Source: Macrostomum lignano (Eukaryota). Taken from it: a stretch of 64,000 nucleotides of DNA. Shown here piece by piece: positions 31,316 through 58,074 of this stretch. The position numbers and the translations under genes are program-made. The first letter of the stretch is position 1; every line of letters starts with the position of its first letter. The stretch is from positions 66,623 through 130,622 of the forward strand of contig NIVC01000294.1 in NCBI GenBank assembly GCA_002269645.1, given 5' to 3'. The notes beneath the pieces were generated by a model that was not told the DNA's origin, did not search any database, and saw nothing but the letters and a program-made list of their open reading frames with translations.

Positions 31316-33539
31316 TCAAACCTTTTTAGAATCTTCATTATTCGGCTGATTAGCGCCTTCTAGTGCAAAAATAAGCATTCTAGCAGCCACTTCGTTGCCA
31401 AATTCTTGAGCACGGAGCAATAAAGTTTGAAGACACTTTTTTGAATGATCAGCATTTGCGGCAAATAGAAGTAGCTCTAAAACTTTATTGTGACCATTCT
31501 GTGCTGCAATGTAGAGAGGTGACTCGCCAGTTTTCATTGAATATTGATATCGGCTTGAGCCCAGATGAGTAACTTCACTATCCGATCATGGCCATTCTGC
31601 AATGCAACATACAGAGGTGACTCGCCAGTGTTGCACCGAAGATTTGCATCGGCATGCGCTTTGATAAGTGAATTCACTACAGTTAATTTGTCATTGCGGG
31701 ATGCAATGTAGAGAGGTGTGGCGCCAGTGTTACGTCGAAGATCGACGTCCGCTTCTGCCTTGATGAGTAGGTCCACAACGAGACTGTGACCGTTCTGCGC
31801 CGCAAGGTAAAGAGGTGAGCAGCCGGATTTACGTTGGATATTCATGTCGGCTTGTGCTCGTATCACAGATTCAACAATTAGCAAATGATCTTTCTGTGAT
31901 GCATAGTGGAGTGGTGACTTGTTATTGTTTCTTAGAATATTCACATCAGCTTGTGCTTTAATGAGCAAGTTTACAACTTGACGATGACCATTTTGAGACG
32001 CAATTATTAGAGGTGTCTCGCCAGATTTTCGCTGAGCGTTGACTTCAGCTTTTGCTCGAATAAGTGATTTCACTACTTGCTCGTAACCATTTTGAGATGC
32101 AACATAGAGGGCTGAGCAGCTAGCGTCAGTTTGATTTGAAGATTGATGTCGGCTTGTGCAGGAATCAACACCTCAGCCACCTTCTGATGCCCATTCTGCG
32201 AAGCAATGTAGAGTGGCGAGCAGCCGCCAAAACCATTGAGATCAAGGGAGGCATTTGCTTTAATGAGTGCATCTACTATTTGTTGGTGACCATTTTGTAA
32301 TGCAATGAAAAGTGGTAAGTCACCACCGCTTCTTTGAAGATTATCATCGGCTTTAGCTTTTATGAGAGATTCTAAAACATTCAGGTGGCCATTCTGCGAC
32401 GCAACGAAGAGCGGTGAGCTGCCATCGGCTGCCCTAGCATTGACGACAGCTTGGGCTTTAACTAGTGAGTCCACAACGTCCTGATGTCCATATTCAGCTG
32501 CAATGTACAGATGAGGTGACTCGCCATCAGTTCTGTCAAGATCGATGTCGGCTTGCGCTCTGATGAGTGTGCCGACAACAAATTTATAACCATTCTGCGA
32601 TGCAACATAAAGAAATGACTCGCCTGTGTTTCGTTGAAGATTTACATCTGCTTGCGCTTTGATTAGTAAATCTAAAACTTCCCGATGACCATTCCCGAAG
32701 ACAGGTGAGCATCCTTCTGTCTTCTCCTGGTGGTTGACATCGGCTTGGGCACTACGTAATTAGCGAATTCACTGCCTGCAGATGACCGTTCTGTGATGCA
32801 AATATCAGGGATGTTACGCCAGTTTTAAGTTGAATATTGGTGTCCGCTTGCGCTTCGGTTAGCAATAGAACTATTTGTTTGTGACCTTTTTGTGACGCCA
32901 TGAGAAGCGGTGAGCAGCCACCAGTTTCTTGGAGATCGACGCTGGCTTGTGCATCAATAAGTAATTTGACGACTTCTTTATGACCTTTCTGCGATGCAAT
33001 GTATAGAGGCGAGCCGCCTTGGCTGTTTTGAAGATTTACATCGGCTTGTGCTTTGATGAGTAACTCAACAAGTTGCTGAAAACCATTCTGTGATGCAATG
33101 TAAAGAGGTGACTCTCCAGTGCAAAGTTGAATATTGACGTCGGCTTGGGCTTTAATCAGTAAGTCTACGATCAGATGGTGACCATTTTGTGCTGCAATAC
33201 ATAGAGGTGAGCCGCCTTGGTTCTGCTGCAAATTGACCTCGGCTTGGGATTTTATAAGCAAGTCTACTATGATGCTGTGACCATTCTGTGATGCAATGTA
33301 GAGAGGTGAACGACTTTGGCTTTGATCAGCGAATCCAAGACTTGTTGATAACATAACTTTGAAGCGATGAAAACAGCACTGAGTCCATCATCGTTTTGTT
33401 GACTGAGCTTCACGTTCTCTCGTACAAGGCTGCATAATATATCTTTCTTCCCTAGCAGACATGCAAGCATTGCTGGAGTCAGGGAAATTCCTTTGAAGTT
33501 AAGGAAACCGCGCATATTCTTACCCTTGTCAATCAAGTC
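31316..33539 (-). pseudogene. Ankyrin-repeat array gene with multiple frameshifts
   Basis: About 20 canonical repeats G.SPLYIASQNGH..VV.LLIKAQADVN.Q are distributed over ORFs 33267-33536, 32752-33354, 32073-32474, 31534-32073 and 31316-31537. Confidence 0.8.
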
Positions 33540-34604
33540 GGGTCGCTTTCACAAGCGCTAATTTTCATAACCGCTAACGACATGAATTTCACAAGCGCTA
33601 AATTTCATAATAGCTAAAAATTTGCCGCCTATACTTTCACAAGCGCTAAACTTCACAAACGCTAAACTTCAGAATAGCGAAACCACCTACTTTCACAAGC
33701 GCTAAACTTCACAAACGCTAAACTTCAGAATAGCGAAACCACCTACTTTCACAAGCGCTAAACTTCACAAGCGCTCGCGCGCTAAACTTCACAAGCGCTA
33801 AACTTCACAAACGCTAAACTTCACAAACGCTAACCTTTACAATCCCCAAAACACGAATGTCGGCTTCTTTTACAAGCGCTAAAATGTTAATATACTATAT
33901 ATACTAATATACTAATACTAATATACTATACTAAAATACTAAAATACTATTTTAGCGCTTGTGAAAGTAGGCGGCATTCGTGTTTTGGGGATTGTAAAGG
34001 TTAGCGTTTGTGAAGTTTAGCGTTTGTGAAGTTTAGCGCTTGTGAAGTTTAGCGCGCGAGCGCTTGTGAAGTTTAGCGCTTGTGAAAGTAGGTGGTTTCG
34101 CTATTCTGAAGTTTAGCGTTTGTGAAGTTTAGCGCTTGTGAAAGTAGGTGGTTTCGCTATTCTGAAGTTTAGCGTTTGTGAAGTTTAGCGCTTGGAAAGT
34201 AAGTGAGTTAGCGGTTATGAAGTTTAGCGCTTGTGAAGTTTAGCGCTTGTGAAAGTAGGCGGCATTTGTGTTTTAGCGGTTGTGAAGTTTAGCGTTTGTG
34301 AAGTTTAGCGCTTGGAAAGTAAGTGAGTTAGCGGTTATGAAGTTTAGCGCTTGTGAAGTTTAGCGCTTGTGAAAGTAGGTGGTTTCGCTATTCTGAAGTT
34401 TAGCGTTTGTGAAGTTTAGCGCTTGGAAAGTAAGTGAGTTAGCGGTTATGAAGTTTAGCGCTTGTGAAGTTTAGCGCTTGTGAAAGTAGGTGGTTTCGCT
34501 ATTCTGAAGTTTAGCGCTTGTGAAGTTTAGCGCTTGTGAAGTTTAGCGCTTGTGAAAGTAGGTGAGCTAGCGCTTATGAAAATTAGCGCTTGTGAAGCCT
34601 CCCC
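33540..34604. mobile_element. Foldback/MITE-like non-autonomous DNA element with an 8-bp TSD (ATCAAGTC)
   Basis: Arms are built from the 16-bp AAACTTCACAAGCGCT and are inverted around an AT-rich spacer (33886-33948). The termini are GGG..CTTCACAAGCGCTAATTTTCATAA. ATCAAGTC occurs at 33532-33539 and 34605-34612. Confidence 0.88.
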
Positions 34605-38318: not shown

Positions 38319-39193
38319 TGTTGTAGGACTCTTGGCTTTCTGTCTAAGAATCTCACTGCTGCAACCAAAATCTGTTGTAAGGGGGGGGGTCGAGGGTTAT
38401 TAGAAATTTTCAGGGTTTCCTTAGAATTTGGGGCGAACTTCGCAATTTATACTACTAGCAGGAGTAAGCCGTAGGTTGCTCCTGGTGGCATGGTGTGTCC
38501 GAGCGGCAAGACACAGTTTCTATTCAGTCCGGGAGAATTGGATGGGGGGTAAAAGGCTTCGCGGTGGATTAGAGTTGCCTGGCGCGCTAGTGGGGAATTC
38601 TAGTGCTTAATAGGGAATGCTGGCGGGGAAGGTAGGCTGCTTCATTGGGAATTACATGGCGGAATTAGGAGTCTAATATTAAGGGAAAATTAGCCGGGGC
38701 GGCTTGGCAATCACTATGTCTAGGGAAGCGCGGGAAGGGTTTCTTGGGACTATTGTACGTCCGAGAAGAGGGGGGGGGGTTTGAGTGGGTTTGGATCGCT
38801 CTGGGGAGCGCTCGAGGGGAAGGGAGTGGCTGTACGCCTCTATCGTACGCTTCTCTGAGAAAAGGAAAGAAAGCTGACAAATCTAAGTTCTATTTTTAGC
38901 ACAACTGTTCATCTAGTGCTCGAGAACAGGAAAGAAGCTTGCATATACCAAGCCCGTCGGAAGGAGATGCTTTTCTACCGTATATTATAGCTCGCTTTTA
39001 TAGTAAATTTTGCCATCATGGCGTATACATTATAACAATAATATTTCGGTTTTAGCACTACAGACATGCATATATATAAAAATAGTGCTCAATGCAAAGT
39101 AATTGAATTTATGGAAATAATTGTATAGACTGAATAAGAATATAGGAGAAATAATGCGCGTAAATTACGTAGGCACGAGCTAAGGCTGTTACA
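38319..39193 (-). repeat. 3' LTR of element 1 (875 bp)
   Basis: Direct repeat of 46633-47508, with about 10 differences seen by eye, mostly transitions. Confidence 0.96.
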
Positions 39194-39211
39194 TCTGGCT
39201 TCCCTTAAGTA
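39194..39211 (-). promoter_or_regulatory. Polypurine tract of element 1
   Basis: On the minus strand, TACTTAAGGGAAGCCAGA immediately precedes the TG of the 3' LTR. Confidence 0.75.
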
Positions 39212-39391
39212 ATGAAATTGAATAAAGAATGAGTGAAGTTTTATTAAAACGAGACAACATATTGCAAAACATACTACAAATACAAAGGCAAACAAAGATA
39301 GAATAAGGCATATTGCAACAGAAAATAAAAGTTTTACTGCAAGGCAAAAAAGGTAAGTCTTGTACTACTGTAAGCGATATATTCTGTTCGT

Positions 39392-40435
39392 TCACATATA
39401 TTGTACCATAGCAGTAGGTAGTCTATCCTGATACGGCCAGCCACACTCAAGGCCGACCCATAGTACTTCAGTGCGGACACTTGCGCGGTTCGTCCAACCG
39501 TTGTTCAGCTCGTGGAGCGCGTAGGCTACGGCCCGCTTCCAGGCAGCAATGGCCTGATACGGCTGCATTCGCTGCAGCGCCTGAAGCGTGGGCCGCAGTG
39601 CCTCTCTAGTTGGCAGGGGCCTGCCGTCCAAGCGGAGTCGCCCCATGCTAATGATGTAGTCTTTTATGCTATTGGCCAGACGTCGGTACTCGTCACGCTG
39701 AGAGCTGGGCAATTGGATGATTGCGATGCTGAAATCACCACCAATTTCCTGCAGGGGATCATGCTCGGCGTTATCCATCAATGGCGGTATCAGAGCGACA
39801 GGCGACCTATTAGCTGGCTGGTGTTGGGGTCGCATGCCGTATTGCGGGGGTGGCGTTACCAACGGAGGCTGTCTCGGCGGCTGACTCATGACTGGGGACC
39901 TCGATGTTGGTCTCTGATTGCGGGATGATAAAACTGCTGGCGGCTATTGGACTGGTGATCTTGGCCGGGGCGACGAAGCAGTTGTCGGCGGTTTCTTAGC
40001 TATCGATTGCCGGGCTGGAGGCTGTTTGGCAGGTGACTTTGGTCTTGACCGGGGCGTTGCAATGGTCGAGGACGATTGGCGGGGTCCCAAACGATGCATG
40101 ACGCTAGTGCTGGGCGCCTGGCTCCGGGGTAGCATGATGGCAGTTTTGCTGTTCGGCGGCTGGCGTTTTGACATGGCTGGGGGAACTAACACTGGGGTAT
40201 CGGCCTGGCGACGCAATAGATCGGCGCGATCTTTCGGGGTCGTGCTTGGGGGCGCTCTTGGTTGAGTTACCACGGAGGCTAGGCGGGGTTTTGGTCCGGG
40301 CAGCTGGGGTCGAGTAGCCTGTCGATCTGGGATCGGCAGCTCATTTTCCTCATCACTGATGATTTCTCCTTCGTCACTAATGCTTAAACTCAACTCATCT
40401 TGCAGCCTTCTTAACTTCTCTGCTTCATCGGACAT
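39392..40435 (-). CDS. Extra ORF3 of element 1 (~347 codons, one in-frame TAG at 39944-39946), function unknown
   Basis: ORFs 39944-40435 and 39392-39889 are in the same frame, and the sequence between them is open apart from the single TAG. No signal peptide or TM segment. Confidence 0.7.
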
Positions 40436-40807
40436 ATCAAATTCAAGATAGCTGGATCAATAATTAGCGGGATAACAGAATAGTTTGTTTGCTTGTTGTG
40501 TAATCTCGGTTTCAAGTGTCTGTGTTATTATTCCCTTTGTTCCCATTCTTTTGGACTCCTCATTTTCGTGACTCATCCTGTTTTTCGTCTTCTTTGGGCT
40601 CTAGTTTCGCTTTGGGTCGATAAATTTAGAGGGTCTTTGTACATTAGCATTGCCCTGGGTGAGTTCTTTCTTTGTATAAAATTTGGGGTTGGTCACGCAA
40701 TTGGGGACGGCGAGAGGGCTAGAATTGGAGGTTGCGCAACAGACTGAGGGCTGTCAATAAGCGCTTTAGATGGCAGTCGCATCTTTGTCTGGCCTGGGTT
40801 GGGCGCC

Positions 40808-43800
40808 TTAGATTGTAGGGGGGGTGTGCACGGGCTCGGGATCTCGCGGGGCAGGAGAGGGGGGAAGGGATTGAGGGGCTTCTTCGTTCAAAGCTTCACT
40901 CTCTGAGTCATCATTTGCTTCTTCTTCTATCTGGGCTTCGGGCAATTCTTCTTCTATCTCTTCGTCGCTGTCTTCTCTTAGTAGACATCTCCAATTCATT
41001 TCTTCTTCGTCAGATGATTCTTCTGATTCAATTATTTCGGGTTCGGGTATTGACTTTGGTAGATTCTGGTGAGGGTTGCTTCCTTTGACTGGTAGTTTCC
41101 TCTTGGGTTTAGTTGAGGCGGGGGTAAGGGCGATAACAGGGGTGGAGATAGGGGTAGGAGCGGAAGCGGAATCAGGGGCGGAACCAGGGGCGGGAGCATC
41201 CTCCTGGCTTCCCTTAAGTAAAAGCTCTGTGGTGGAGTTAGGCACGGGTGTTAAATTGTCTCTATGCACTAGCATTTCTCTGCCAATCAGTTTGCCATCT
41301 TCTTCCTTCTGGATCTTAAATACGACTTCGGAAATTTGGGCTATAACTCGAAATGCTGATCGCTTCTTTCTATGGAACTTGTGTGATTCTTCGGCGTCTA
41401 ATTGGGGATTATTAATTAATGCAAGACAGCCTATGGGGACTCTCGGGGGAAGCTTATTGATTTCTGCGGCGGTCTTTCTCTTGTCAACTATCTTTTCCAA
41501 TTTCTTCTTTACTACTTTGTGGGCTTCTTCTAGTCTTTCAGCATGTTTGGTAATATAAGAGGGGTAATCGGCATGTTCGGCTGCGCTTCTGATTTGAGTA
41601 TCTAAGGGTAGAGTAGCTTCTCTGCCAAACAATAAAAAATGTGGGGAGAATCCTGTTGTTACATTGAGGCTGGTGCGGACGGCTACTAGAGCTGCGGGAA
41701 TTAGTAAATCCCAATCACCATGATCTTTATTGATCAAGCAGGTGATAATCGATTTAATTTGCTTGTTGAAACGTTCTACTAATCCGTTAGATTGGGCATG
41801 GTAAGGGGTAGTAAAAGTATGGCGAATGTTGTAGAGTTCGCAGAAAGCTTTAAATTGTTTGCTGGCAAAAGTTTTTCCATTGTCTGTGTGGATCCAGGTG
41901 GGCTGTCCATATTCTGCTACTATTCGTTCAAGTAGTATCTTGATGACCGTGTCGGATTTTTGGTTTTTAATGGGAAAAGCAAAGGGGTATCTAGTTGTGC
42001 TATCAACAACAGTTAAAACATATTTATGACCTCGTTTGCTTTCTTTTGAGATTGGGCCAATGATATCTATATGCAGGCGGCTAAATGCTTCGCCAATGGG
42101 GAATGACTGGACTGGGGCTTGAACAAAATGTCCTTTCTTGCTCTCAAGGCAGGGGATACACTCAGCAATTAACTGCTCAACTGAGGTGCTTAGTCCAGGT
42201 CGCCAAAATCTTTCTCTTATTCTCTGGAGCGTTTTATCTCTTCCTAGATGTCCTGCGAGGGGGCTGCAATGTAGGTCAGTAAAGACTGCTTTATCTAAGG
42301 ATGGGGCAAAACTACTTTGGTTTTTCCGTCTTCGGCAATTGTCAATAACTCGTTATCGATTTTCATCAGTGCATAATGCTTACTGATTTTCTCTGGCACG
42401 TCCGGTGATTTGGGGAGTTGGCTCAACTTCTGTTTCTTGGCTTCTAACAGAGCTTTGATGATGGGGTCAGCAGCTTGGGCTTCTTGGATTTGTTCTTTCT
42501 TCAGGGGGCTGGGAAGATAATCAGTTAACAATTTCTCGCACTTTCCTGTCTCCTTTTCTGCTTCTACTTCTCTACCTGAGACAATTAGCTTTGTCCTAGA
42601 TTCGGGACATTCAGGCTGGGTCTCGCTTTCTGTCAGGGCTTCAGGTGACTGGGACATGGGGTTGTCCTTAGTTTCAGCGGGAGCACTCTCATTTCTCAGG
42701 GGAACAGGGGTTAGCTTCTCAACTTTCTCAGGGATTGGCTCAGTTTTCTCAGGAATCGCTTCAGGTACTTCAGGGGTTTCAAGGATCGCTTCAGCAGGCT
42801 CAGTGGCTGTGTCAGGGACTTCAGAAACTTCAGGTGCTGTTTCAGCAAGTTCAGGGGCTACTTCAGGGGATACTTCAGGGGCTTCAGCTATCTCAGCTGG
42901 TCTTCTCGACAATCCGTCGGCATTGGAATGTTTTGCGCCGCTTCTGTGTTCAATGTCGAACCTGAATTCATTTAGGTGCTCTATCCATCTTCCTAGGATT
43001 CCGGTTGCTTCTGTCTGTCTCATGAGCCAAATAATCGCTTTATGATCAGTTTGGGCTAAGAATTTCTTGCCAATCAGATAAAATCTGAAATGCCTCATAG
43101 CGTCGACAAGGGCTAACAATTCTTTCCGGGTAATGGGGTATCGTTTCTCTGATTCCTTCATTGCTCTACTAAAATAGGCTATTGGTCGCTCTATGCCATC
43201 ACTCTGGATTTGGCCAAGGCATGCGCCAATCCTGTCGTCACTGGCATCTGTGTCAAGCACCATCTTCACATTTTCATCTTCGACATACTCGGGGTAGGCT
43301 AACACTTCAGTGGACATCATTCGCTGCTTCAGGGACTCAAAGGCTTCGTCATGCACTTTGCTCCACTTAGATTGGAAATTCTGGACTCCTTTTCGAGTCA
43401 ATTGGAATAGGGGGTGAGCCACTTCGGCATAATTCTTCACAAATCGGCAATAATAATTGCATAGGCCAAGAAAACTGCGTAGTTCTTTTACGTCTTTGGG
43501 ACGGGGCCAAGTTTGGATAGCTTCAATCTTCGTCTTGTCTGTTTGAATGCCTTGTCGGCCAATCACGTGTCCTAGATATTTCAACTCGTGATGGAAAAGA
43601 TTGCACTTCTTGGGTCTCAACTTCAGACCTGCGGCAATTAGTCGCTTAAATACTTCTCTTAAGTGCTCTAAATGGTTGGCAAAGGTTTGGGAGTAGGCTA
43701 TTATGTCATCTATATAGGACATGGTGAACTTATGTTGGATTCCTAATAGGACTAAATTCATTAGGCGTTGGAAGGTTCCGGGGGCATTGGAAAGTCCTTG

Positions 43801-45570
43801 GGCCATTACTTGGTATTCAAATTGGCCTCTAGTTAGGGTGGAGAAGGCGGTTCGATGTTTGTCTTCTTCTTTGATGGGGACTTGCCAGTATCCTGAGTTT
43901 AAATCAAGGCTACTAAAGTATTGGCTACCAGTTAGGTGGGAGAAGGTCTCTTGAATATTGGGGAGGGGGTAGGGGTAGTAATTAACTCTTGAATTGAGCA
44001 CTTGGAAATCGCTCACGATTCTAATGGAACCATCTTTCTTGGGGACAATTACTAGGGGGGTGGAGTAGGTTGAATAGCAGGGTCTAATTAAGTTTTTGGC
44101 TAACATATCGTCTAATTGGGTGTCAACTTGCTTTTGCAAGTGTGGGGGGATGCGTCTAGCTGGGATTCTAACGGGAGTGGGGTCTTTAATAGAGATTTCG
44201 TGAGTTACTAAGTGGGTCAGGCCCATGTCTAATTCATTCTGGAAAAAGGCTTCACGGTTCTCTTTCATTAAGTCGATGACTGCTTTTCGCTGTTCATCCG
44301 ACAGTTCAGGGCCAAGGCTCACTTCATTAATCCAGGAATCTTCAGTACATTGAGTCTGGTTGACTTTCACAGGGGGTTGGGGGTTGGGAGTTGGGATTTG
44401 CCAATAGGTTAAGTCCTTGGCTTTCATAGGTCTGGCTAAGCCAATTAGGGAGGTTTTAGTTAGATTCACGTCTACAGGGTGACGATTAATAATCTCGACA
44501 ATTCCTTTGCCTTCTTTCATGGTTACTAGGGTCGGAACCATTTCTAGGGAGAAATCACGGGTTCGGACAGTATCGCCAATGGCTTCAATGGTCATGGGGG
44601 TGCCATAATTCGATTCACAATTCTTGGCTAATTTCACGGGTATTCGAAGGGCACTATTAGCTGGGATGATTACTCTTTCTTGAGTATAAACTCGACAAAC
44701 TTTCACGGGTAGGCGGGTATACTGCATGGGTATACAGGTACCTTCATTAAGCACTAGCATTCCTTTGGCTAGCTGAATGCTTTCACATTGGGATAGGAAA
44801 AATTCCATACCTAGAATATTGTCACAATCATGTCGGCATAGGAGGAAATCAACTTCGATTTGGATATCCCCAAACTTCACTTGGGCGGATACCTCTCCTT
44901 CTAATTGAATAGGGGTACCGTCAAATGTACTAATGCTTTTGCTAGTGTCTCGGATTTGATCGGCACGGAATAGCTTAGACCAGGTTGAACGGCTCAGGAA
45001 ATTATTTCTGGCGCCTGTGTCTAACAAGAAATCAATCGATTCTTTCTGGATATCGCCGACAATTACAGCTTCATAGCCTTCTAGCTTAGTCAGGTCGATT
45101 TGGGATGGGGAATTGGGTTTTGGCTTTTGTCGCTTCTTTGAGCGGGTTTCAGCACTGGATAGAGCATTATTGACTTTAATCGCATGGGATACATGGGGTG
45201 CAAGCGCAGTGGGTACATGGGGTGCGGACGCGTGATGAGCAGAAATCGCATTGGTTACATGGGAAGCAGTCGCATGAGCTGTAGTCGCATGGGGGTCATT
45301 GTACACATGGGGGTCATGGGGGGCAATTGGCGTATCATCGATTTCGTCGCAAGCAAGTAATGAGAAGTTATTGGGTGAAGTAAATATCGCATTATTCACA
45401 GGCATTGGCTGTACATGAGAGGTTTTGCGGGGGTAGCGGAAACCGTACTGGGGAGGTTGCCGGTATTTTGGTTGGGGGGCAATTTCGAATGATGGGGAGG
45501 CCGGAGAGTAAGCAGAATTTTGGCCTGAGGGGTGTGGCCTCTTAACTCGACCCTGGCTTCTCAGTTTCCC
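40808..45570 (-). pseudogene. pol: pol of element 1 (PR-RT-RNase H-IN), one frameshift near 42300
   Basis: PR LLDTGA; RT LDLNSGYWQ and YIDD; RNase H DTDASD...ELLA; IN HCSPLAGH...CIPC, IDII, TDNG and VERF. The IN frame is open from ~42300 to 40808. Confidence 0.95.
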
Positions 45571-46550
45571 GACTTCTGGGAGTCACGGGGGTTGCGGAAC
45601 TTCAGCGGCTCATATCTGGGATTGGGGGGCTGACGCTCATTCCTTCTTGGGGGTTCACGCCTTGGCGGTTGGTTCATCAGCTGGGGCCTGTACTGCTGCT
45701 GAGGTTGCGGCCTGTACTGCTGCTGGGGTGGCTGTCTGTACAGCTGAGGGTTTGGCTGTCTGTACTGCTGAGGAGGTGGCTGCCTATACTGTTGCTGGGG
45801 GAACACCTGAGATGGCGGAGCGCATTGCACTGTTTCGGCCAGTTGTTTCTGCAGGTTCTGAATAAGCCTTTCTTGGCGGTCAATCTTAGTCTGCTGGTCA
45901 ATGATCAACTGATCGGTTCTGACCTTGTGCTCCTCTTTTTCTTCCTTAGTCACTCGGATTCCACCTTTGTGGGACATTTGGTAAGCTGCTTCAATTCTGC
46001 GCAGCATTCTGCGGGCGGCTTGGAGACTAGCCGGTTGGGCAAAGATCAGCTTCTCACGGGTGTCGGGAAGGGTTCTCACACCTTAAATGAACTGTTCGAC
46101 CAGTTCTTCTTCTCTCTGCTCAGCATCCATATTTAGGAATGCGCAGGAGGCTAATTCAATCAAAGCATCGGCAAAACTGTCAGTGGATTCGTTTCTGCCT
46201 TGGCAGCGATTCCTAAACTCTTCGCGAAATTCAGCGGAGCTACCTACTTTTCCAAATCTTTCGATCAATCTTTCTTTGAACTCTTCATAGGGGAGATTAG
46301 CTGGGAGGTTGAGGCGTTGAACTGCTGCAAACGCAGTACTCAGGTCTAGATTGGTAAGCAGTTCCTGCTTCCGGTTTTCTTCTTCTATGCCTTCATTTTC
46401 ACATCTCTGGTCAAATGCGGTGAGCCAGATTCTGATATCTTGGCTGGGAAGGTACTTCTGGATCTTCACATGTCTGAGGGGACCTAATTCTAAGTGGTTG
46501 CGGAGCTCTTCAGCTAAGAGCGCAAGGGCTTCCTTGATTCCTGCGGCCAT
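45561..46550 (-). pseudogene. gag: gag of element 1, with an in-frame TAA at 46083-46085
   Basis: Retrotransposon gag-like W..AF...C...EF..RCQGRNES...FADAL..LA. ORFs 46083-46550 and 45561-46079 are in frame. The C-terminus is QQYRQP-rich. Confidence 0.9.
45564..45570 (-). promoter_or_regulatory. -1 ribosomal frameshift slippery heptamer G GGA AAC
   Basis: It lies directly before the gag TGA, and the -1 frame is open from here into the pol ORF at 45405. Confidence 0.8.
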
Positions 46551-46615
46551 TGTGCTTCAGGGATTGGGATGGGAAATTAGGCTGGGATGCGCGTTTCTCC
46601 AGATTCTAATCCTTT

Positions 46616-46628
46616 ACCGCTGCCACCA
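46616..46628 (-). promoter_or_regulatory. Primer-binding site, tRNA-Leu(AAG/TAG)-type
   Basis: TGGTGGCAGCGGT, 4 nt inside the 5' LTR, is complementary to the tRNA-Leu 3' end ACCGCUGCCACCA. Confidence 0.85.
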
Positions 46629-46632
46629 AATC

Positions 46633-47508
46633 TGTTGTAGGACTCTTGGCTTTCTGTCTAAGAATCTCACTGCTGCAACCAAAATCTGTTGTAAGGGGGG
46701 GGGGTCGAGGGTTATTGGAAATTTTCAGGGTTTCCTTAGAATTCGGGGCGAACTTCGCAATTTATACTACTAGCAGGAGTAAGCCGTAGGTTGCTCCTGG
46801 TGGCGTGGTGTGTCCGAGCGGCAAGACACAGTTTCTATTCAGTCCGGGGGAATTGGATGGGGGGTAAAGGGCTTCGCGGTGGATTAGAGTTGCCTGGCGC
46901 GCTAGTGGGGAATTCTAGTGCTTAATAGGGAATGCTGGCGGGGAAGGTAGGCTGCTTCATTGGGAATTACGTGGCGGAATTAGGAGTCTAATATTAAGGG
47001 AAAATTAGCCGGGGCGGCTTGGCAATCACTATGTCTAGGGAAGCGCGGGAAGGGTTTCTTGGGACTATTGTACGTCCGAGAAGAGGGGGGGGGGTTTGAG
47101 TGGGTTTGGATCGCTCTGGGGAGCGCTCGAGGGGAAGGGAGTGGCTGTACGCCTCTATCGTACGCTTCTCTGAGAAAAGGAAAGAAAGCTGATGAATCTA
47201 AGTTCTATTTTTAGCACAACTGTTCATCTAGTGCTCGAGAACAGGAAAGAAGCTTGCATATACCAAGCCCGTCGGAAGGAGATGCTTTTCTACCGTATAT
47301 TTTAGCTCGCTTTTATAGTAAATTTTGCCATCATGGCGTATACATTATAACAATAATATTTCGGTTTTAGCACTACAGACATGCATATATATAAAAATAG
47401 TGCTCAATGCAAAGTAATTGAATTTATGGAAATAATTGTATAGACTGAATAAGAATATAGGAGAAATAATGCGCGTAAATTACGTAGGCACGAGCTAAGG
47501 CTGTTACA
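46633..47508 (-). repeat. 5' LTR of element 1 (876 bp)
   Basis: Direct repeat of 38319-39193. Confidence 0.96.
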
Positions 47509-48237: not shown

Positions 48238-49273
48238 TGAAGTGGGGGTGGAAAAGAATTGACAAAGTTGAAAGTTGGCCAGTTTTTGTGTAAACCTGGT
48301 AGCATTGCATTCGCACGAGTAAAGCCGGAAATTTTGTGTAGGCAAATCACGATGTAATCTTCTCCTTTTATTCCGACCGCCGGGGTCCTCAAGTCCTGGG
48401 GGAGGGTAGTCATACTCGTAGCGGAGCAGTTGTGTAGCGGCGCGGTCATTCAAAGCAATGAAAACACTGGAAATGTAGGCACCGTAGTTAATGTGTCGTT
48501 TTGCTGAGCTTATTACTTCCAGTAGGGTAGAGCTGCCACCACTGTAATTTACGTATTACGGAATGGATAAGTCTCGGAGCTTTTCTTTAGCTGAGGAAAC
48601 TTGGTTATTTTATGCCCCACGGGCAAAAGATTCAAGATAGGCTACGGCTTAAAGTCACCTATTAATGTATTAATATATTGAATCGATATTATTTCTTTAT
48701 TTGTTGGGATTTATTGAGCAGGATGAATAGATTATTATTACTGACGAGGATGAGCTTCGGTGGGCCGCGGTGCGACAATTAATTAAAATGAAATAAAACT
48801 AAAAGAGTAAGCAGAAGGAGTACCGAATTAAACTAACACGTCAAAATGGAGGGAAAAGTAGGTGGAGGAGGAGGAGGAGGAGGTGGAGGTGAAGGTTAAA
48901 CCAAAACACAAACAGATGCATATTTTATAAGTAAACGTGACGTAAAGTTTGCCGCTGGACCAGATTAAGGAAAGCATACGAAACGCATCTGGTCCAGCAA
49001 TGGCAGAGTAATGAAAATACATGCAATTAAATGTGGTATGCAAAAAGGCGAATGAAGGGATAGCAAGTTGGCATGGGGTGGAGATTAAAATATCCCATTG
49101 CGGGATGGGGTGCGTGACAAAATTTTCGGTAACTTGGCCCTACATGGGAAAACAAAAAAATGGCTTGCACTTATCGTAAAAGGAAAAGCACCAAATTTTG
49201 AAAGTTAATAAATGTCTATTAAATTGAATGAGTAAATAAATATTATTAAAACCAGGGGCAGCCACCTGCCATA
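48238..49273 (-). repeat. 3' LTR of element 2
   Basis: Direct repeat of 57068-58074. The terminal CA reads TA at 49272-49273, and there are several short indels relative to the other LTR. Confidence 0.93.
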
Positions 49274-49325
49274 TGCACGGGCGGGTCAGGATTTGCAAGC
49301 AAAATTACAGTACTCCTATTGTCGA

Positions 49326-50063
49326 TCACTGACGTCCGCCTTGGCTGGTGGGTGCCCGGCCGCGAGTCGGAGGGCGAGAGCTGCGGTCCTCGGTCGACGT
49401 CACGGCCGGCGTCTCACTCGGCGTCTCGCTTAGGTTCAACTGAGCGGACGAGCTCGCTACTCGGGCCACTCTGCACGGGTTATCAATGACCGGCGGGATG
49501 CCGCGTTGCCAGACATGCTCCACATATCGAGCAACAAGTGTGCAACAGGGTCCCAGCTGTGGGCCAGTGGTCTCAGCTTGCAGCCAGAGACCCGTTAGGG
49601 CCACCTCGGCCTCGAGTGCCAGGGTGGTGTCGGCGGCTGAATGCTGGCGGGCCACAATGTCCCAAGTCCGACAATCGTTAACATGTCTTGGCTCCTGGGG
49701 ATGCAGCAATTCCAGGTAAAGTAGTTCCTGGAGCATTTGGGCCGGCTCCACACTGGCCAGTGGGGCTGCTTCCAAGGCTGAGGTGCCCGACGCCTCCGAG
49801 TAGGCCTGGCTGGAGGTGCTTGACCAGGCAGATGGCGGCGTGACTTCGGGGCCGTACTCTAGCAGCCACAAGAAATCGGTGTCGTCGGCCTCCAGCGCAG
49901 GCGTGGCGTGGACTAGGTCCAGGTACTGCTCGACTCCGACGTCCGGGCTTGGGGCGGGCGCAGGAGGTGTGTGGAGCTCGGATGGCCCAGAAATTATTGG
50001 GATGTCGAACATCCGCCAGTCAGGGGTGCCAGCACTCCATGATCGGCCATGGCGACGAGACAA
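49326..50063 (-). CDS. Extra ORF of element 2 (245 codons from TTG; first in-frame ATG at codon 18), function unknown
   Basis: Uninterrupted GC-rich ORF between the integrase tail and the 3' LTR, in the same orientation as pol. Confidence 0.55.
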   Translation of the reverse strand: MSRRHGRSWSAGTPDWRMFDIPIISGPSELHTPPAPAPSPDVGVEQYLDLVHATPALEADDTDFLWLLEYGPEVTPPSAWSSTSSQAYSEASGTSALEAAPLASVEPAQMLQELLYLELLHPQEPRHVNDCRTWDIVARQHSAADTTLALEAEVALTGLWLQAETTGPQLGPCCTLVARYVEHVWQRGIPPVIDNPCRVARVASSSAQLNLSETPSETPAVTSTEDRSSRPPTRGRAPTSQGGRQ

Positions 50064-51159
50064 ATGAAGTTGAGCCCGGTCGCCGGATTAATGGATTAGT
50101 CAATTGGTCACAATCGAATGATGTCGGCTGAATATAAGTGGCAAGCCGGATAATTAACAATTAGAAAAAGAATCAGAGCCAGGGTGCGACTTATATACTC
50201 AGAATACCGTCACGCAGATGGAAATGAGGGGTCCCTAACTGGGAACAGGCCTCCACCCTGCATGCACTCTATGGTGGGCATGCATGGTGAAGGGGTGGGT
50301 GGTTAAATCCAAAAGGCTATAAAACAGATAAACGCGCGGCAGGGGTCCTGATTTGAATGAATTGGGGGCACCTAAGCGGCTCACATTAAACGGGTTGGTG
50401 GTTGGGAAAGCTGAACATCGCGTTAAACATTAAATAGAAAAATAGATAGAAAGAGGGAGCAATTGTGGCTCCTTATAGCTAAGATAATATAGTATAAGTA
50501 AGTTAGTGACCAAAATTGTCAAACTGGTGGGCTCAACAAGGAGTTACAGGAAAACAAGAGCAAACGACTGGCACTGGGAGAGGGGAAACAAAAGTCAGCC
50601 CTCACAAAATTTTCCCAGGCTCGAACTAAATTGAACAAAGAAAACAGGGGTCGAGTCACCTCAAAAGGCCTCCACTGAGGACAAGGCCTAGTTGGAAAAC
50701 TGGGGCTCTTGACCTAGGTGGGGCAAATGACAGTTTGGCCCTTAGGCAGTGGGCACACAAATAGAAGAGAGGGACCTTCAGCATGAAACTAACTGCAAAG
50801 TTTGCAAAAATTAGTTGCTTTTCTCCGAAAGGCTTAAGGCAAGAAAATTGGGACACTTCTGCACTTTGATCGCGTGCAAGAAGTTTATAGCAAATGGGGA
50901 GGCGCAAAATTAGATGAGAATGCAATTAAGCAATGATTTTATAGTATCACATTGAATAAAAATTTAACGCATTGATTAAATAAGTTGCATTAGCGCAGGC
51001 TTTACTGCAGCAAAGGGAGAAATATGAAGAGCAGAAGTGCTGATTAATGAACCGCGTTGGATAATAGCAAATTATACAGGTGCTCAAATGATTTGCACGT
51101 ATACAAATTATACGTGCTCATGCGGAGGTTCGTACATGAGCACGAAACTGATCAAATAC

Positions 51160-51417
51160 ACACTGCTTTTACCTGAAAGCATAAGGAAAATGAGAATTGC
51201 TTTTAACCCTGAAGCATAAGGAAAGTACATTGAAATTAAAATTTGATGCCTGCTTTTACCTAAAAGCATAAGGAAAATGAGAATTGCTTTTAACCCTGAA
51301 GCATAAGGAAAGTACATTGAAATTAAAATTTGACGCCTGCTTTTACCTGAAAGCATAAGGAAAATGAGAATTGCTTTTAACCCTGAAGCATAAGGAAAGT
51401 ACATTGAAATTAAAATA
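51160..51417. repeat. Three 87-bp tandem repeats in the 3' non-coding region of element 2
   Basis: The unit ctgcttttacctgaaagcataaggaaaatgagaattgcttttaaccctgaagcataaggaaagtacattgaaattaaaatttgatgc is itself two related halves. Confidence 0.9.
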
Positions 51418-51559
51418 TAAAAAAACCGCTTTTAGCACAGAGCAGGTGCAGAGAAAGCTTACGGCAAAATTAAAAAAATTGGAATCCGTTTGCAAAATCA
51501 ACTACTAATAGTAACGTGCATCAAAAGTTAGCAACTTGGCGCGACATAAAATGCATTGG

Positions 51560-54500
51560 TAATTACCTTTCAAACTTCAATCTCCGCACCGATATCAGGC
51601 AAATCCGGGTCGCCTTTGGGCAGCACTTCCGGATGGTGGAGGCTTGGCTCGAACAATTGGCTGCCGCGCATGTCAGGCTAAGCTGCGGCTGGTTGTTCAG
51701 GAGTGGGCTGATTGGCTGGGTCGACTTCGCTGTCGTCGCTCGACTCGTAGGGCAACATTGGCCGCTTGGTTTGGCGCGGCGGCGCCTGCGGTCGATTTAC
51801 CATCATTTGCGGCACTTTGATGATGTTGTTGCAGTGCACCAACATCTCAGCGGGGTGTCCTCAACGGGCTGTCGCTGGCTGGATCCAATAGGCTACTTCG
51901 CCGACCTTTCTGTTGACTTTGTACAAGCTCTTGTATGGCCAGTGAAACCTTGGCAGCTCTCCCAATTTGAGCTTCGGGTTGGCCAGGCAGACCAGGTCTC
52001 CAGGCTGCAGTTCCATGGGCTTAGGCCGGTTTTCATAGTACTCTTTGCGGCGTTAAATCTCAGCTCGCAATCGCTGTCGTACAATTCTTTTGATCTCAGC
52101 CAGTCTGCGCTGATGCTTTGCGATGTACTCAGGGAGGTCCGGCGATACGTCCAGGCGGTCTAGGGTGTTATCAATTGGGTACCGATAGGGCACTCCGTAG
52201 ACGACGTAATGCGGCGAGAAACCCGTCGTACAGTTGACTGCAGATCGCAGGGCTGTCAAAGTGGCTGGCAACATCTTTTCCCATTGTTGGTGATCTTCCA
52301 GGAGACAAGTGAGCACTTTTTTGATGTTTTTATTGTACGATTCAGCTTGTCCGTTGGCCCAAGGCGAGTATGGCAGCATTGTCGTTTGCTGGATGCCATA
52401 GACTTCGCAGAAATGTTGAAACTCGTGCCTGGTGAACTGCTTGCCTTGATCCGAATGGATCCATGCAGGGATTCTGGTGATCGGGAAGACTTGTTCTTGG
52501 AGCCGAGTTATGATCGTCTTGGCCCGCTGATTCTTCATGGCGAAGGCAAATGGATACTTCGATGTCGTGTCGACATAGGTGAGGATGTACTTGTTGCCTC
52601 GGTCTGTCGGGTCTCCAGTGGGGCCCATGATGTCAATCACAAATTGCCCATAGATTTCGCAGACCGGAAATGATTGTACATGCACTGGGATGCGTCGCCG
52701 TCCTTTGCTCTGAGTGCAGGTCTGGCAGGAAGCGACATAGTTGGACATGGCCTTGGCCAGGGCCAGTCACTAGAACCTCTCGCGCACCTTTGCGATGGTG
52801 AGATCTCGGCCCATGTGTCCGCAGTAGGGCGAACCATGCAGGTCAGCGAATACCGTGGCATCGAGACTCTTTGGCAGGACGATCCTCGCTGTGTCCTCTT
52901 CACCAACATTGTTAAGATGGATGACTAAAAGTCCATTGTCTCGGACCTCTAGCAGTTCGTAAAATGCTAAGAGATTTTGCTCATCTCTTGTCAGATTTAA
53001 CCGCTGATTCAGCGGCGGCTTCGGTTGTCGACTTTCGATAAGGTTGATCATCATCATGCTGGCAGAATCAGCATGCTGGTGAGTCTGGAGCTCCTCACGA
53101 GTGATTGGCCTTGGGATGTGATCAGTTAGATTCAAGGCTTGGCGTCGGTTAATCAAATTAGACGGCGTGTCTTCGGCTGTGGCATCATGGTTCAGGGTCT
53201 GGAGCTCCCTCCGCACGACTGCCACTCTGGCCAGTTGCTGGGTCGTTGAAGGATTTGAAGGCCAATCCTCGTCAGTCAGTTTGGCGTCGGTGTCGTCAGC
53301 ATTGGATTCGTCAACAGATGAGAGTAAGTCAGCAGAGCTATCGGCGTCGAGGCTAAATCTCACCTTTTTGAACACAGGATGGCAAACGGGTTGGCAGCAG
53401 TCGTTGCTGGCTGCACTGTGGTCGCTGTCCCCGTCGCCTTCAGCTAGTAGATGGCGGCTCCTTGATGGGCAACATGTCGTACTGCTAAAACTGGTGGGCG
53501 ACCTCTGAGAGTCTCGCAGACGGCTGGCTGATGGCCTCGGCTTCGTTGCCGGCGGGTGCAGCACTGTCAGCGACTTGCTATCGGCTGTCAATGTTGCTGG
53601 CGGCGTAGCCTCGCCGTTGGACTCTGTTGGCTCAGGCAGGCTCCGATTCTGGTCGCAGAAGTATCCGTGTCCAGGACAAATATTACATTCGGATCTTCGC
53701 TGAACTGCGGATACGCGAGCACTGATGTCAAAGTCATAGCTGCCTTGAACTAGTCGAATGCGTCTTGCTGGGCTTTTCCCCATAGACAATTGAAATTTGA
53801 GATCTTCTTCTCCTTAATCAGATCGTGAAGCGGAGCAGCAAGTTCTGCGTAGCCAGGTACAAATTTAGCATAATAAGTGCAAGTGCAGACAAAACTTTTC
53901 AGTTGCCAAGCTGTTTTTGGTCTTGGCCAAGTTTGAATAGCTTCGATTTTTGCCGGGTCAGTCTTGATTCATCCTTTGTTACAACGTGTCCCAGATAGTT
54001 TAAACTGGTCCGAAATAGATGACATTTCTTGCCTTTAAACTTTAAATTAGCATCTTGAGTTCACTTAAATACCTCTTCATATAGAGCAGATGGTTGTTAA
54101 ATTTCTTAGAATAAACGATTACGTCATCCAGGTAGGCTATTGCGCTTTTGTAGGTAATCCCATTGAGTATAGCATTCATGAGGCGCATGAAGCTGGCTGG
54201 CGCTAAACTTAGCCCCATAGGCATGACCTTGTAGGCAAATTGTCCGCAGTGCAGCGTAGCAAAGGCAGTCAGATCCTGATCTTCTGGACGCAGCGGAATC
54301 TGATAGTAGCCGCTATTGAGGTCGAATGTGCTGAATAGCTGGCTTCGCTCAAGGCTGGCAAATGCTTCTTGGATGTTAGGAATCGGGTACGGAAAATACT
54401 CGCACTTTTGATTCAGACTCTGGAAATCTTGCACAATTCGCAGGCTGCCATCCTTCTTCGGGATGATCACCAGCAAAGTGTTGTAGCTGGAGAAGCTCGG

Positions 54501-55545
54501 TCAAATCACGCCTTTGGCCAACAGATCATCGAGTAGCTGGTCCACTTTGGGTAGCAGATGCGGCGGGATCCGGCGAGTTGGCAGATGCACCGGATTCGTG
54601 TCCTTTAGCACAATACTGTGGGTGACCAGGTGGGTTTGGCTGAGATCGTGTAGCCCCTGAGAGAAGATGGTCTTGTACTTCTTCAATAGCTCGATGACTT
54701 GAGCTCGCTGGTCACTGGACAGATCTTCCCTGATGTCAATCTCCTTGATCCAAGCATCAGGATCTTTGTCTTGGATTTGATTGACCAAGTCTTCTGGCTT
54801 CAGCAGCGGGAAGAACTGTAACTCAGGCAGTCTGATGGGTCTAGCAATCCCGACTAAGGCATTCGCTTGTACTTTGATTGATGTTGTTCCCCGATTAATC
54901 ATCTTGATAGCACCTTCTCCATTGGCCATAGATATCAGGGCAGGCGCGGCGTCCAGGTGCTGCACATCTTCTTCGCGCCGAGCCGGTTTCAACGGCTCGA
55001 TCATGGCGGGTATACCCTGGTTCTCTTGTCCTTTGGCAAGTTTAATCTTGATTCGGGCTGATGATAGCGGCGGCACGGTTGTGCTCTCAGCCGTGTAAAT
55101 TCTGGACGTTGTCGCTTCTGTTCGTGTGTAACGGAGTGGTGCAGCAGTGCCGTCCTTGAAGAATAGCATCCCAGCGGCGAGATCCAGTGAGGTGCTGTAC
55201 TTCTCCAGAAACTCGAAACCCAGGATGTTGTCATGAGATCCTTTCGCTAGCAGAAACTTGACTGTAGGCTCGAAATTCCCAATCTTCACTTTAATGGTTA
55301 ATTCTCCTGCCATCTGAATTGGTTCACCATTGTAGGTCACGATGCACTGTAGGCAGGGCTTGATTTGGCCACACAGGGTTGGGTTATCAGTACATAGGCG
55401 ATGCCAGGTGCTGAAGCCTAGGACTTCGCACTTAGAACTGGTGTCAAATAGAAAAGCAAAATAATGACAATGAATCTCACCAGTTAAAAACGGATCTATT
55501 TGAGGTCGCTTGGGTGCAAAGCTCTGTACAGGTGCGGCGGAGGCG
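51560..55545 (-). pseudogene. pol: pol of element 2, with multiple frameshifts and most of RNase H deleted
   Basis: PR FLFDTSS; RT FDLNSGYYQ and YLDD; RNase H start VLDTDTS..RIGACLSQ then lost; IN HGSPYCGH, CQTC, IDIMG, SDQG and AESYN; GPY/F-like tail. Confidence 0.9.
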
Positions 55546-55548
55546 GGC

Positions 55549-57000
55549 TCAGCAGTGGCCTGCTGAGCGACTAAAGTCTGCGGTGGGGACTTTAGTGCTG
55601 GCGCGGCTGCTAGATGGTGCTGCCCCCGATGGCACGTCCAGCCATCCCGTTTCCCAAGCTGCTGTTGTGCTGGGACGCGGTGCTAGCCGACCGTCAGTGC
55701 GGGCATTTGTCAGCGCAATGCTCGCAGTTGCACCTGTAGCACATTGCACTTTGCCGTCGCAACTGATAGGGCAGCGGTCTTGAACTTGATTGTTGCTGCT
55801 GTTGCTGCTGCTGCAGCTGCTGCTGCAGCTATTGCTGTCAACGTTGACCTCCTGCTGGCGGGTTCTCGGTGGCGGGTTGCTGCCGTCTTTTGGTTGCTGA
55901 AGTCGCTGGAACTGGTCGTGCGGCACAGTTCTTTTTGCTGGGCGTTGTAAATTTGGCACTTCCGTCGGCACTGCGGCGAGGTGTCGGATGTACTAGACAT
56001 CTAGAGCGTTGGTCCTACGAGTCCCACGACTGGTGTCAAGGTTCCCATGGCTCCGGGGTGTCGTTGTTGCGCGATCCCCGCGAGTAGAACTCTCGCATCG
56101 GATTACTCAAAGTTTCAAGTAGGCGTCGCTGCTCTTGCTGTGTCTCAGCTTGTTCCATGACTTCTCGCAACCAGTTTTCCTTGGGCCGAGATGACTTGTC
56201 GTGTTGCACTACAGTGGGCATCTGATCATTGTCATCCTCAAGAACCCGGACGTGTCTCACTGCTGGCGGCAGTGCTATACGCTGAGCCATGCTAGCTGCT
56301 GTCTCCAGGCGTAGCACGGCCCGTCTCGCTGCGATCAGATTTGGGGGTTGCACCAGGATTAGCTGTTCTCGGGCCAACTGAGCAATCCGCACTCCCACAG
56401 TGAACTGATCCACCAGTTCAACCTGCTTCTGAACTGGGGTAAAATGCGGGAACGCTCAATCGGCCAAAGCAATTAGTTGGTCGCCGTAGTTGTCCACACT
56501 CTCGTTCTTGCCTTGCTGGCAGCTTCGAAATTGCTCCCGGTACTCCAGCGTGTCGGCAACATGTGTAAAACGCTTAGACAATTGTTGTTTGAACTCACCA
56601 AACGTTAGGTTGTCTGGCAGCTCCATCCTGACAACTGCAGGGTAGGCTGTGGCGATGTCCAGATTCACGAGGACCTCTGCCTTCTTTTGTCTGTCGTCAT
56701 TGATCCCGTTGAGCTTGCATCGCTCTTTGAGAGCCTTGATCCAGATGTCAAATTTCTGGTTGGGCGTGTACCACTGGATCTTGACTGGTTTTGGCGCTGG
56801 AGCTCGATCCTGCTGCTGGGCTGCTGGCACACATAGTGATGGTGTTGCAGCTGGCCCAGGCTAGTCTGCTCCAGTCTCCGGTGCACCTCATCGGTCACTG
56901 CACAAATCATCTTGTCATAGGTCGGTCTAGTAGTTGAGTTGTCGGGGCCTGCGGCGTCGGCTGTTGCATCTGCGGCCGTTGGATCATTAGTTGAAGCCAT
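55549..57000 (-). pseudogene. gag: gag of element 2 (frameshifted)
   Basis: ATG at 57000 (MASTNDP...). VKIQWYTPNQKFDIWIKALKERC...YREQFRSCQQGKNESVDNYGDQLIALA is homologous to element 1 gag. Confidence 0.85.
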
Positions 57001-57045
57001 AGTGTAGCATTTGAACGACTCGTTGAAAGGGTTTTGGCGTTTCGT

Positions 57046-57066
57046 AATCCCACTTAGCTGACACCA
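57046..57066 (-). promoter_or_regulatory. Primer-binding site, tRNA-Leu(CAG/CAA)-type
   Basis: TGGTGTCAG(CT)AAGTGGGATT matches the complement of the tRNA-Leu 3' end GAAUCCCACUUCUGACACCA, with a 2-nt insertion. Confidence 0.8.
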
Positions 57067-57067
57067 G

Positions 57068-58074
57068 TGAGGTGGGGGTGGAGAAGAATTGACAAAGTTG
57101 AAAGTTGGCCGGTTTTCGTGTAAACCCGGTAGCATTGCATTCGCACAAGTAAAGCCAGAAATTTTGCGCAGGCGAATCACAACGTAATCTTCTCCTTTTA
57201 CTCCAACAGCCGGGGTCCCCAAGTCCAGGGGAGGGTAGTCATACTCGTAGCAGAGTGGTTGTGTAGCGGCGCGGTCGTTCAAAGCGATGAAAACACTGGA
57301 AATGTAGGCACCGTAGTTAATGTGTCGTTTTGCTGAGCTTATTACTTCCAGTAGGGTAGAGCTGCCACCACTGTAATTTACGTATTACGGAATGGATCTT
57401 TTCTTTAGCTGAGGAAACTTGGTTATTTTATGCCCCACGGGCAAAAGATTCAAGATAGGCTACGGCTTAAAGTCACCTTAATGTATTAATAAATTGAATC
57501 GATATTATTTCTTTATTTGTTGGGATTTATTGAGCAGGATGAATAGATTATTATTATGAGGATGAGCTTCGGTGGGCCCGGTGCGACAATTAATTAAAAT
57601 GAAATAAAACTAAAAGAGTAAGCAGAAGGAGTACCGAATTAAACTAACACGTCAAAATGGAGGGAAAAGTAGGTGGAGGAGGAGGAGGAGGAGGTGGAGG
57701 TGGAGGTTAAACCAAAACACAAACAGATGCACATTTTATAAGTAAACGTGACGTAAAGTTTGCCTGGACCAGATTAAGGAAAGCATACGCGTCTGGTCCA
57801 GCATGGCAGAGTAATGAAAATACATGCAATTAAATGTGGTATGCAAAAAGGAATGAAGGGATAGCAAGTTGGCATGGGGTGGAGATTAAAATATCCCATT
57901 GCGGGATGGGGTGCGTGACAAAATTTTCGGTAACTTGGCCCTACATGGGAAAACAAAAAAATGGCTTGCACTTATCGTAAAAGGAAAAGCACCAAATTTT
58001 GAAAGTTAATAAATGTCTATTAAATTGAATGAGTAAATAAATATTATTTAAACCAGGGGCAGCCACCTGCCACA
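57068..58074 (-). repeat. 5' LTR of element 2 (1007 bp)
   Basis: TG...CA termini, directly adjacent to the PBS. Confidence 0.93.

Follow-up and report, generated by a model that had tools for sequence, protein, structure and literature searches.

Regulators of transcription that are encoded by the element itself are established for complex retroviruses. In retrotransposons that have long terminal repeats (LTRs) at their two ends, the function of accessory ORFs is mostly unassigned (PMC7264820), and accessory ORFs in the slot between pol and the 3' LTR are already known as a kind (PMC7264820; PMC5408684; PMC10309623). In the available text of the reports cited in this paragraph, five systems come closest to the gene described here, termed ORF3, from a Gypsy element of Macrostomum lignano. 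The foamy-virus protein Tas, or Bel1, is the product of an accessory gene near the 3' LTR, with an internal promoter, an acidic activation segment, and low homology between lineages (PMC3185757; PMC517496). Plant ORFs of the maize Grande gene23 type, located between pol and the 3' LTR, are conserved accessory ORFs with their own promoter and a proposed nuclear role (PMC7264820). The non-env ORFs of bdelloid rotifer elements are likewise third ORFs in the env slot and undergo modular exchange (PMC5408684). CERV, from the Cer1 element of C. elegans, is a novel regulatory protein of an animal LTR retrotransposon (PMC10309623), and VANC of the VANDAL transposons is a lineage-specific accessory factor that diversifies with the type of element (PMC13547354).

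ORF3 differs from each of these as they are described in that text. Unlike Tas, it is carried by an env-less retrotransposon, has its acidic segment at the N-terminus, showed no element common to spacer and U3, and has no sequence or fold match to Tas in Pfam, the PDB, or viral models; its activator role is putative (PMC3185757; PMC517496). The plant ORFs are antisense, whereas ORF3 is a sense ORF of an animal element, encodes a different protein, and is exchanged together with U3 as a cassette (PMC7264820). The rotifer ORFs encode GDSL esterases, DEDDy exonucleases, or membrane proteins, while ORF3 holds no known domain (PMC5408684). CERV, an exporter of genomic RNA, comes from a spliced transcript, whereas no homology of ORF3 to it was found and an export role for ORF3 is putative (PMC10309623). 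VANC belongs to plant DNA transposons and resembles the host protein MAIN, while no host relative of ORF3 was found (PMC13547354). The ORF3 family, its exchange with U3, and a promoter block resembling that of histone H1 genes were not found in the literature searched; repeat databases, subscription papers, and an earlier classification paper may annotate ORF3. A paper that lists the LTR clades of M. lignano, a species for which transgenesis exists, has no occurrence of 'ORF' in its main text, and its supplements 2-5 may annotate ORF3 (PMC12801592); the available text of another does not mention the genus Macrostomum (PMC13524379).

The window, that is, the whole stretch of 64,000 nucleotides that was analysed, holds a Gypsy element at 38319-47508 on the minus strand in which ORF frames and Pfam show the customary succession of gag, protease, reverse transcriptase (RT), RNase H, and integrase. 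The assignment to Ty3/Gypsy rests on this order of the pol domains, an LTR pair, a primer-binding site, and a polypurine tract, all of which are present. The LTRs (46633-47508 and 38319-39193) are 98.9% identical, with 9 differing positions and one gap. The features of the element are as follows, in order of transcription.

46633..47508, minus: 5' LTR, 876 nt, with a GCCAT motif and TATA box at 47338-47309
46617..46628, minus: primer-binding site, presumably corresponding to the 3' end of tRNA-Leu, which it resembles
45561..46550, minus: gag, with one premature stop (46083-46085) and 95-97% identity to the gag of young copies
40808..45582, minus: pol (protease, RT, RNase H, and integrase with an acidic tail), split near 42.3 kb
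40436..40807, minus: non-coding pol-ORF3 spacer, probably comprising an internal promoter and the ORF3 5' UTR
40614-40622, 40592-40601, 40563-40576, and 40495-40504, minus: conserved blocks of the spacer, from an alignment of 11 copies
40522-40532, minus: AT-rich, TATA-like stretch in the spacer, from the same alignment
39392..40435, minus: ORF3, 347 codons, with one internal stop (39944-39946)
40385..40435, minus: N-terminal acidic amphipathic helix of ORF3, resembling an activation domain and also a leucine-rich export pattern; helix at residues 4-15 in the model of a relative (L042)
40120..40335, minus: middle motifs, conserved, basic, and rich in proline; disordered apart from one short predicted helix
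39395..39766, minus: C-terminal six-helix domain (CTD), the conserved core of the family
39197..39237, minus: polypurine tract (39197-39206) together with a conserved motif that lies upstream of it
38319..39193, minus: 3' LTR, 875 nt, its U3 part inherited with the ORF3 type

Since gag and pol are broken in addition to ORF3, the window copy is a decaying, non-pristine member of its family; its integrase tail also ends unlike that of its relatives. The LTR ends (46617-46695 and 38319-38380 in the window, as well as loci L047, L049, L067, and L071) show tandem units of an LTR end and a primer-site-like sequence with differing spacers, which may have been left by template switching from one subfamily to another. 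In most types, a TCAC(T)-containing motif and TTC-AAA stand upstream of the polypurine tract (39197-39237 in the window), and at three loci (L055, L056, and L075) type-specific tandem repeats occupy the 3' UTR between the ORF3 stop and that tract.

The original prediction described ORF3 as a non-env reading frame in the env position, interrupted by a single TAG and ending in a folded, helical part, and this description was borne out. Two stop-free frames of the same phase on the minus strand (39944-40456 and 39392-39943) are separated by one stop, and the 347 codons counted from the ATG at 40435 lie between integrase (Pfam rve) and the 3' LTR. The closest copy (93% DNA identity) lacks a stop at this place and has one indel elsewhere. 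The highest mean Kyte-Doolittle value over 19 residues is 0.52 in the window and 0.27-1.11 in 26 of 26 relatives; because none of these 27 proteins has a hydrophobic segment, ORF3 is not a classical env. A search of the genome with the CTD returned at least 144 matches at E<=0.001 and 28-99% identity (150 of 221 candidates were scored), and with a distant member as the query all 150 scored candidates matched, many at new places; both numbers are minimum values, with allelic copies among the matches. Among 40 loci that were fetched, chosen for long open frames, integrase lies upstream of the CTD in 32 and the LTR pairs are at least 99.5% identical in 22. In one element (L138:6396-8071), two CTDs of different type, each interrupted by stops, stand in tandem. 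When 1.84 billion proteins were searched with a profile, 7 matched, the 5 named ones all from Macrostomum lignano; one of these 5 is 100% identical to a frame in this assembly, and a Logan protein shares no more than 38-44% identity with anything scored there, indicating that the family also occurs outside this assembly.

Purifying selection on ORF3 is strong, with omega (dN/dS) of 0.068, 0.045, and 0.050 for the CTD (12, 13, and 31 copies) and of 0.11 and 0.05 for the N-terminal part. Codon models compared with omega=1 gave 2dlnL values of 372-1705, with synonymous sites near saturation and recombination ignored. The view of ORF3 as an accessory gene other than env in a lineage of Gypsy elements is supported, with omega 0.05-0.11 overall; it encodes a soluble protein that matches no known family.

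The preferred reading, to which a probability of roughly 0.45 is given, is that this selected accessory gene has its own promoter in the spacer and encodes a Tas-like nuclear trans-activator of the element's LTR. Transcription of ORF3 would start from the internal promoter, and its product would resemble Tas in its working while being unrelated to it in sequence. Given a promoter in the spacer, the chance is about even that recruitment of co-activators falls to the acidic N-terminal helix and import of the protein to the basic motifs, with the CTD locating DNA or chromatin that belongs to its own cassette type. The combination of an acidic N-terminus, paired basic motifs, a mildly basic CTD, a putative internal promoter, and co-inheritance with U3 makes the layout most like that of Tas. 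A wider and more tentative proposal, doubtful in its entirety, is that an env-less clade of animal retrotransposons may run a two-promoter programme like that of foamy viruses, with a new helical activator under a histone H1-type promoter element, U3-shuffled types on one gag-pol, pol-less parasites, and a CTD-only host copy as a possible dominant-negative brake. The family offers a clean animal case: its folded domain is undescribed and strongly selected, young copies are numerous, natural variants either have pol or lack it, and one host locus holds the CTD by itself. It makes testable the self-activation of env-less elements and the coexistence of many regulatory types on one replication chassis.

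Full ORF3 frames of about 280-535 residues consist of the acidic N-terminal helix, the basic motifs, a variable linker rich in Pro, Gln, and Arg, and the CTD. In the AlphaFold model the C-terminal part forms six helices (pLDDT 88.6), while the model of a full-length relative is mostly disordered outside the CTD apart from short helices. Paired KR motifs occur in the ORF3 of the sister branch, and the CTD is mildly basic. No Pfam family was found for any of 15 full-length members at E<=0.1, and enzymatic ORF3s of the rotifer type (GDSL, DEDDy) and a J-domain ORF3 were rejected on the same 15 proteins. A set of 5.8 billion sequences gave no match among 257 candidates (lengths 204-650 only), a sequence search of the PDB gave nothing under E 0.04, and Foldseek against the PDB and viral models gave no match at E<=0.001. 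In a wide fold search (VIA), the best hit, the C-terminal domain of Gle1 (Z 7.2, rmsd 3.9, 118 aligned), tied with unrelated helical proteins and lies in the background range; no known DNA-binding fold resembling the CTD appeared in the fold searches. The CTD therefore matches no family or fold searched, which leaves room for an unlisted family and does not by itself prove a new fold.

A strongly acidic segment with bulky hydrophobic residues is the usual signature of an activation domain, and in all 26 types residues 1-30 carry a net charge of -7 to -11 and 5-9 bulky hydrophobics. The same helix was scored against the established classes of leucine-rich export signals. It fits their pattern in 17 of 26 types, among which are all 9 types that belong to the window's subfamily. 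ORF3 might accordingly be an RNA exporter like Rev or CERV, in which the N-terminal helix is the export signal and the basic region or the CTD binds genomic RNA. The arginine-rich middle, a conserved motif that precedes the polypurine tract, and the precedent of CERV in a Gypsy-type element, as far as the available text describes it (PMC10309623), would all suit such a function. However, the remaining 9 types have the acidic helix without the pattern, CERV itself is made from a spliced RNA, and neither the contigs of 4 presumed RNA runs nor the 3' UTRs of 39 types reveal an intron for which such a factor would be required to keep it in the RNA; a role in export is judged unlikely.

The trans-activator reading draws further on the way in which ORF3 is inherited. 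Compared with the window, 9 of 10 elements have a gag-pol of 81-98% identity and an ORF3 and U3 of mostly 40-72%, where shuffled U3 sequences score a background of 52%. In 12 of 12 pairs of the window's subfamily, dS is 0.07-0.15 for RNase H and at least 1.28 or saturated for the CTD. None of 1153 pairs with CTDs less than 75% identical shares a U3 at 85% or more, as opposed to 17 of 24 pairs with CTDs at least 95% identical; in this comparison, 32 of 104 matches were dropped because the search for the polypurine tract failed. Thirteen pairs are discordant, 8 having CTDs at least 93% identical and U3 below 75%, and 5 having a common U3 and CTDs that are 78-80% alike. In trees of 25 elements, built from RT plus RNase H or from the CTD, the 11 rows of the window's subfamily form one clade and the 8 rows of the sister branch another, while inside the window's subfamily the RT tree is star-like, the CTD tree is deep, and sister pairs differ. 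The elements are thus mosaics of a shared gag-pol chassis and divergent ORF3-U3 cassettes. Recombination presumably homogenises gag-pol; template switching would do so while the cassette types persist. Co-inheritance of ORF3 and U3 is also expected from linkage alone, and because the two are linked, it is not possible to separate them as the target of diversifying selection. No motif is common to a spacer and its own U3 more than to other U3s (26 types, permutation p=0.54).

Deep and maintained diversity of ORF3 and U3 on a near-uniform gag-pol would also be expected of a type-specific anti-silencing factor like VANC, in which the CTD would shield the element by recognising either a silencing protein of the host or the cassette to which it belongs, the diversity being an escape from silencing by small RNAs. 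Anti-silencing, like RNA binding, was among the functions suggested by the original prediction, and the suggestion stands as a rival. The precedent of VANC, as outlined in the available text (PMC13547354), the retention of ORF3 in elements without pol, and the type-specific tandem repeats in some 3' UTRs are consistent with such a factor. On the other hand, the acidic amphipathic N-terminus suggests activation or export, the overall omega is very low, and no chromatin-reader fold emerged from the fold searches, so that anti-silencing has only a modest chance of being the function, comparable to that of RNA export.

At 13 loci, an LTR pair encloses a short diverged gag-like frame and ORF3 and lacks pol. 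In the 12 of these elements that were scored, the CTD is open in 11 and the whole ORF3 frame in 10, in a sample that is biased to open frames. If ORF3 is a trans-activator, such elements would spread through retention of the cassette. Moreover, an LTR-free locus carries an ATG-started, CTD-only frame of 118 residues together with the promoter block and a TATA box. It is found on three contigs with common flanks (L154:7025-7569, L156, and L157; C846, C3012, and C2203), and neither gag, pol, nor an LTR pair was detected in the stretches fetched. All 5 invariant residues are retained in the frame. Between its three versions 6 codons vary, with 4 silent and 2 conservative changes; the locus is a candidate for a co-opted host gene. 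Such a gene could be a co-opted inhibitor if ORF3 served for self-limitation or exclusion, by holding down copy number or keeping out other cassette types. That many types have persisted on a single gag-pol is in keeping with frequency-dependent selection. The pol-less elements keep ORF3 though an inhibitor would give them little gain, and this explanation is considered improbable.

The trans-activator reading depends on how ORF3 is expressed. It had been proposed that ORF3 is translated from a spliced RNA joining a donor in the 5' leader to an acceptor just before the ATG, namely the AG at 40453-40452 (minus strand), 16 nt upstream. This AG is present, and together with an upstream CTAAT it is found in the window and its closest copy, but conservation of the acceptor does not extend across the family: a YAG falls within the 30 nt that precede the ATG in 18 of 27 types (15.8 in shuffled sequences), and 4 of the 27 have none within the last 60 nt. 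No junction at the proposed acceptor is among the 5 joints in contigs of 4 runs presumed to be RNA, in which ORF3 cover is thin and absence cannot be proven, and the same contigs show no step in depth at the spacer. The promoter block, moreover, accompanies the CTD even where no LTR is nearby, and the spliced route has a slim chance of being correct. A separate candidate, an intron in the 3' UTR that ends at the polypurine tract, was rejected, as no donor is conserved across 39 types and one contig spans the UTR unspliced.

The spacer is 170-440 nt long across the family and contains conserved blocks. Several invariant blocks lie upstream of the AT-rich stretch in the window's subfamily, while other branches have TATATAA and CCAAT boxes. 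TATAA occurs between -170 and -55 in 14 of 27 types as against 4.2 in shuffled sequences, and in 15 of 27 in a control window (-345 to -230). An 18-nt block from the spacer of the sister branch has 32 genomic matches compared to 0 for the control. Of 30 places with this block, 23 are upstream of a CTD, 2 upstream of a histone H1 gene (L175:5008-5165 and L180), and 4 in tandem arrays; at the 1 remaining place the CTD lies beyond the stretch examined. At the H1 gene the block stands before a TATA-like box, and the longest exact match to the region upstream of the host H1 gene is 30 nt for the sister-branch spacer and 26 nt for the CTD-only locus. Of the evidence for an internal promoter, the block shared with H1 is the strongest, but its source is the sister branch: in the window's own subfamily the H1-like block is missing, a canonical TATAA is absent from the window spacer, and the window's block-3 pattern was not enriched in the genome (46 matches and 104 for the control). 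Taken together, these sequence patterns make it likely that the spacer is an internal promoter, which fits better than a spliced RNA. Genome-wide, a 21-nt promoter block was found 445 times (control 0); much of this total falls in unrelated tandem arrays whose periods range from 29 to 45 nt (L168-L174 and L176-L178).

A decayed env, a host gene captured in a single copy, or a chance frame, which the stop in the window copy and the env position might suggest, is extremely improbable given 27 of 27 proteins without a hydrophobic segment, the omega of 0.05-0.11, and hundreds of copies.

The window also contains a second Gypsy element at 48238-58072 (minus strand), with LTRs that are 94.7% identical and relatives whose RT is 56-62% identical to that of the first. 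It has a non-env ORF3 of its own at 49326-50087, with an acidic N-terminus, a helical domain, an Arg/Gly-rich tail, and 54 genomic matches; as a candidate relative of the first ORF3 it was rejected, the two not being detectably related (hhalign 0.7%). The exons at 59855-62038 (plus strand) encode RPEL repeats together with a SAP domain (Pfam) and are taken to be myocardin/MRTF-like. Overlapping frames of ankyrin-like repeats at 31316-33548 (minus strand), apparently frameshifted as judged by eye, adjoin a nest of inverted repeats at 33.5-34.6 kb, and a tandem array with a 21-nt period spans 13330-15000.
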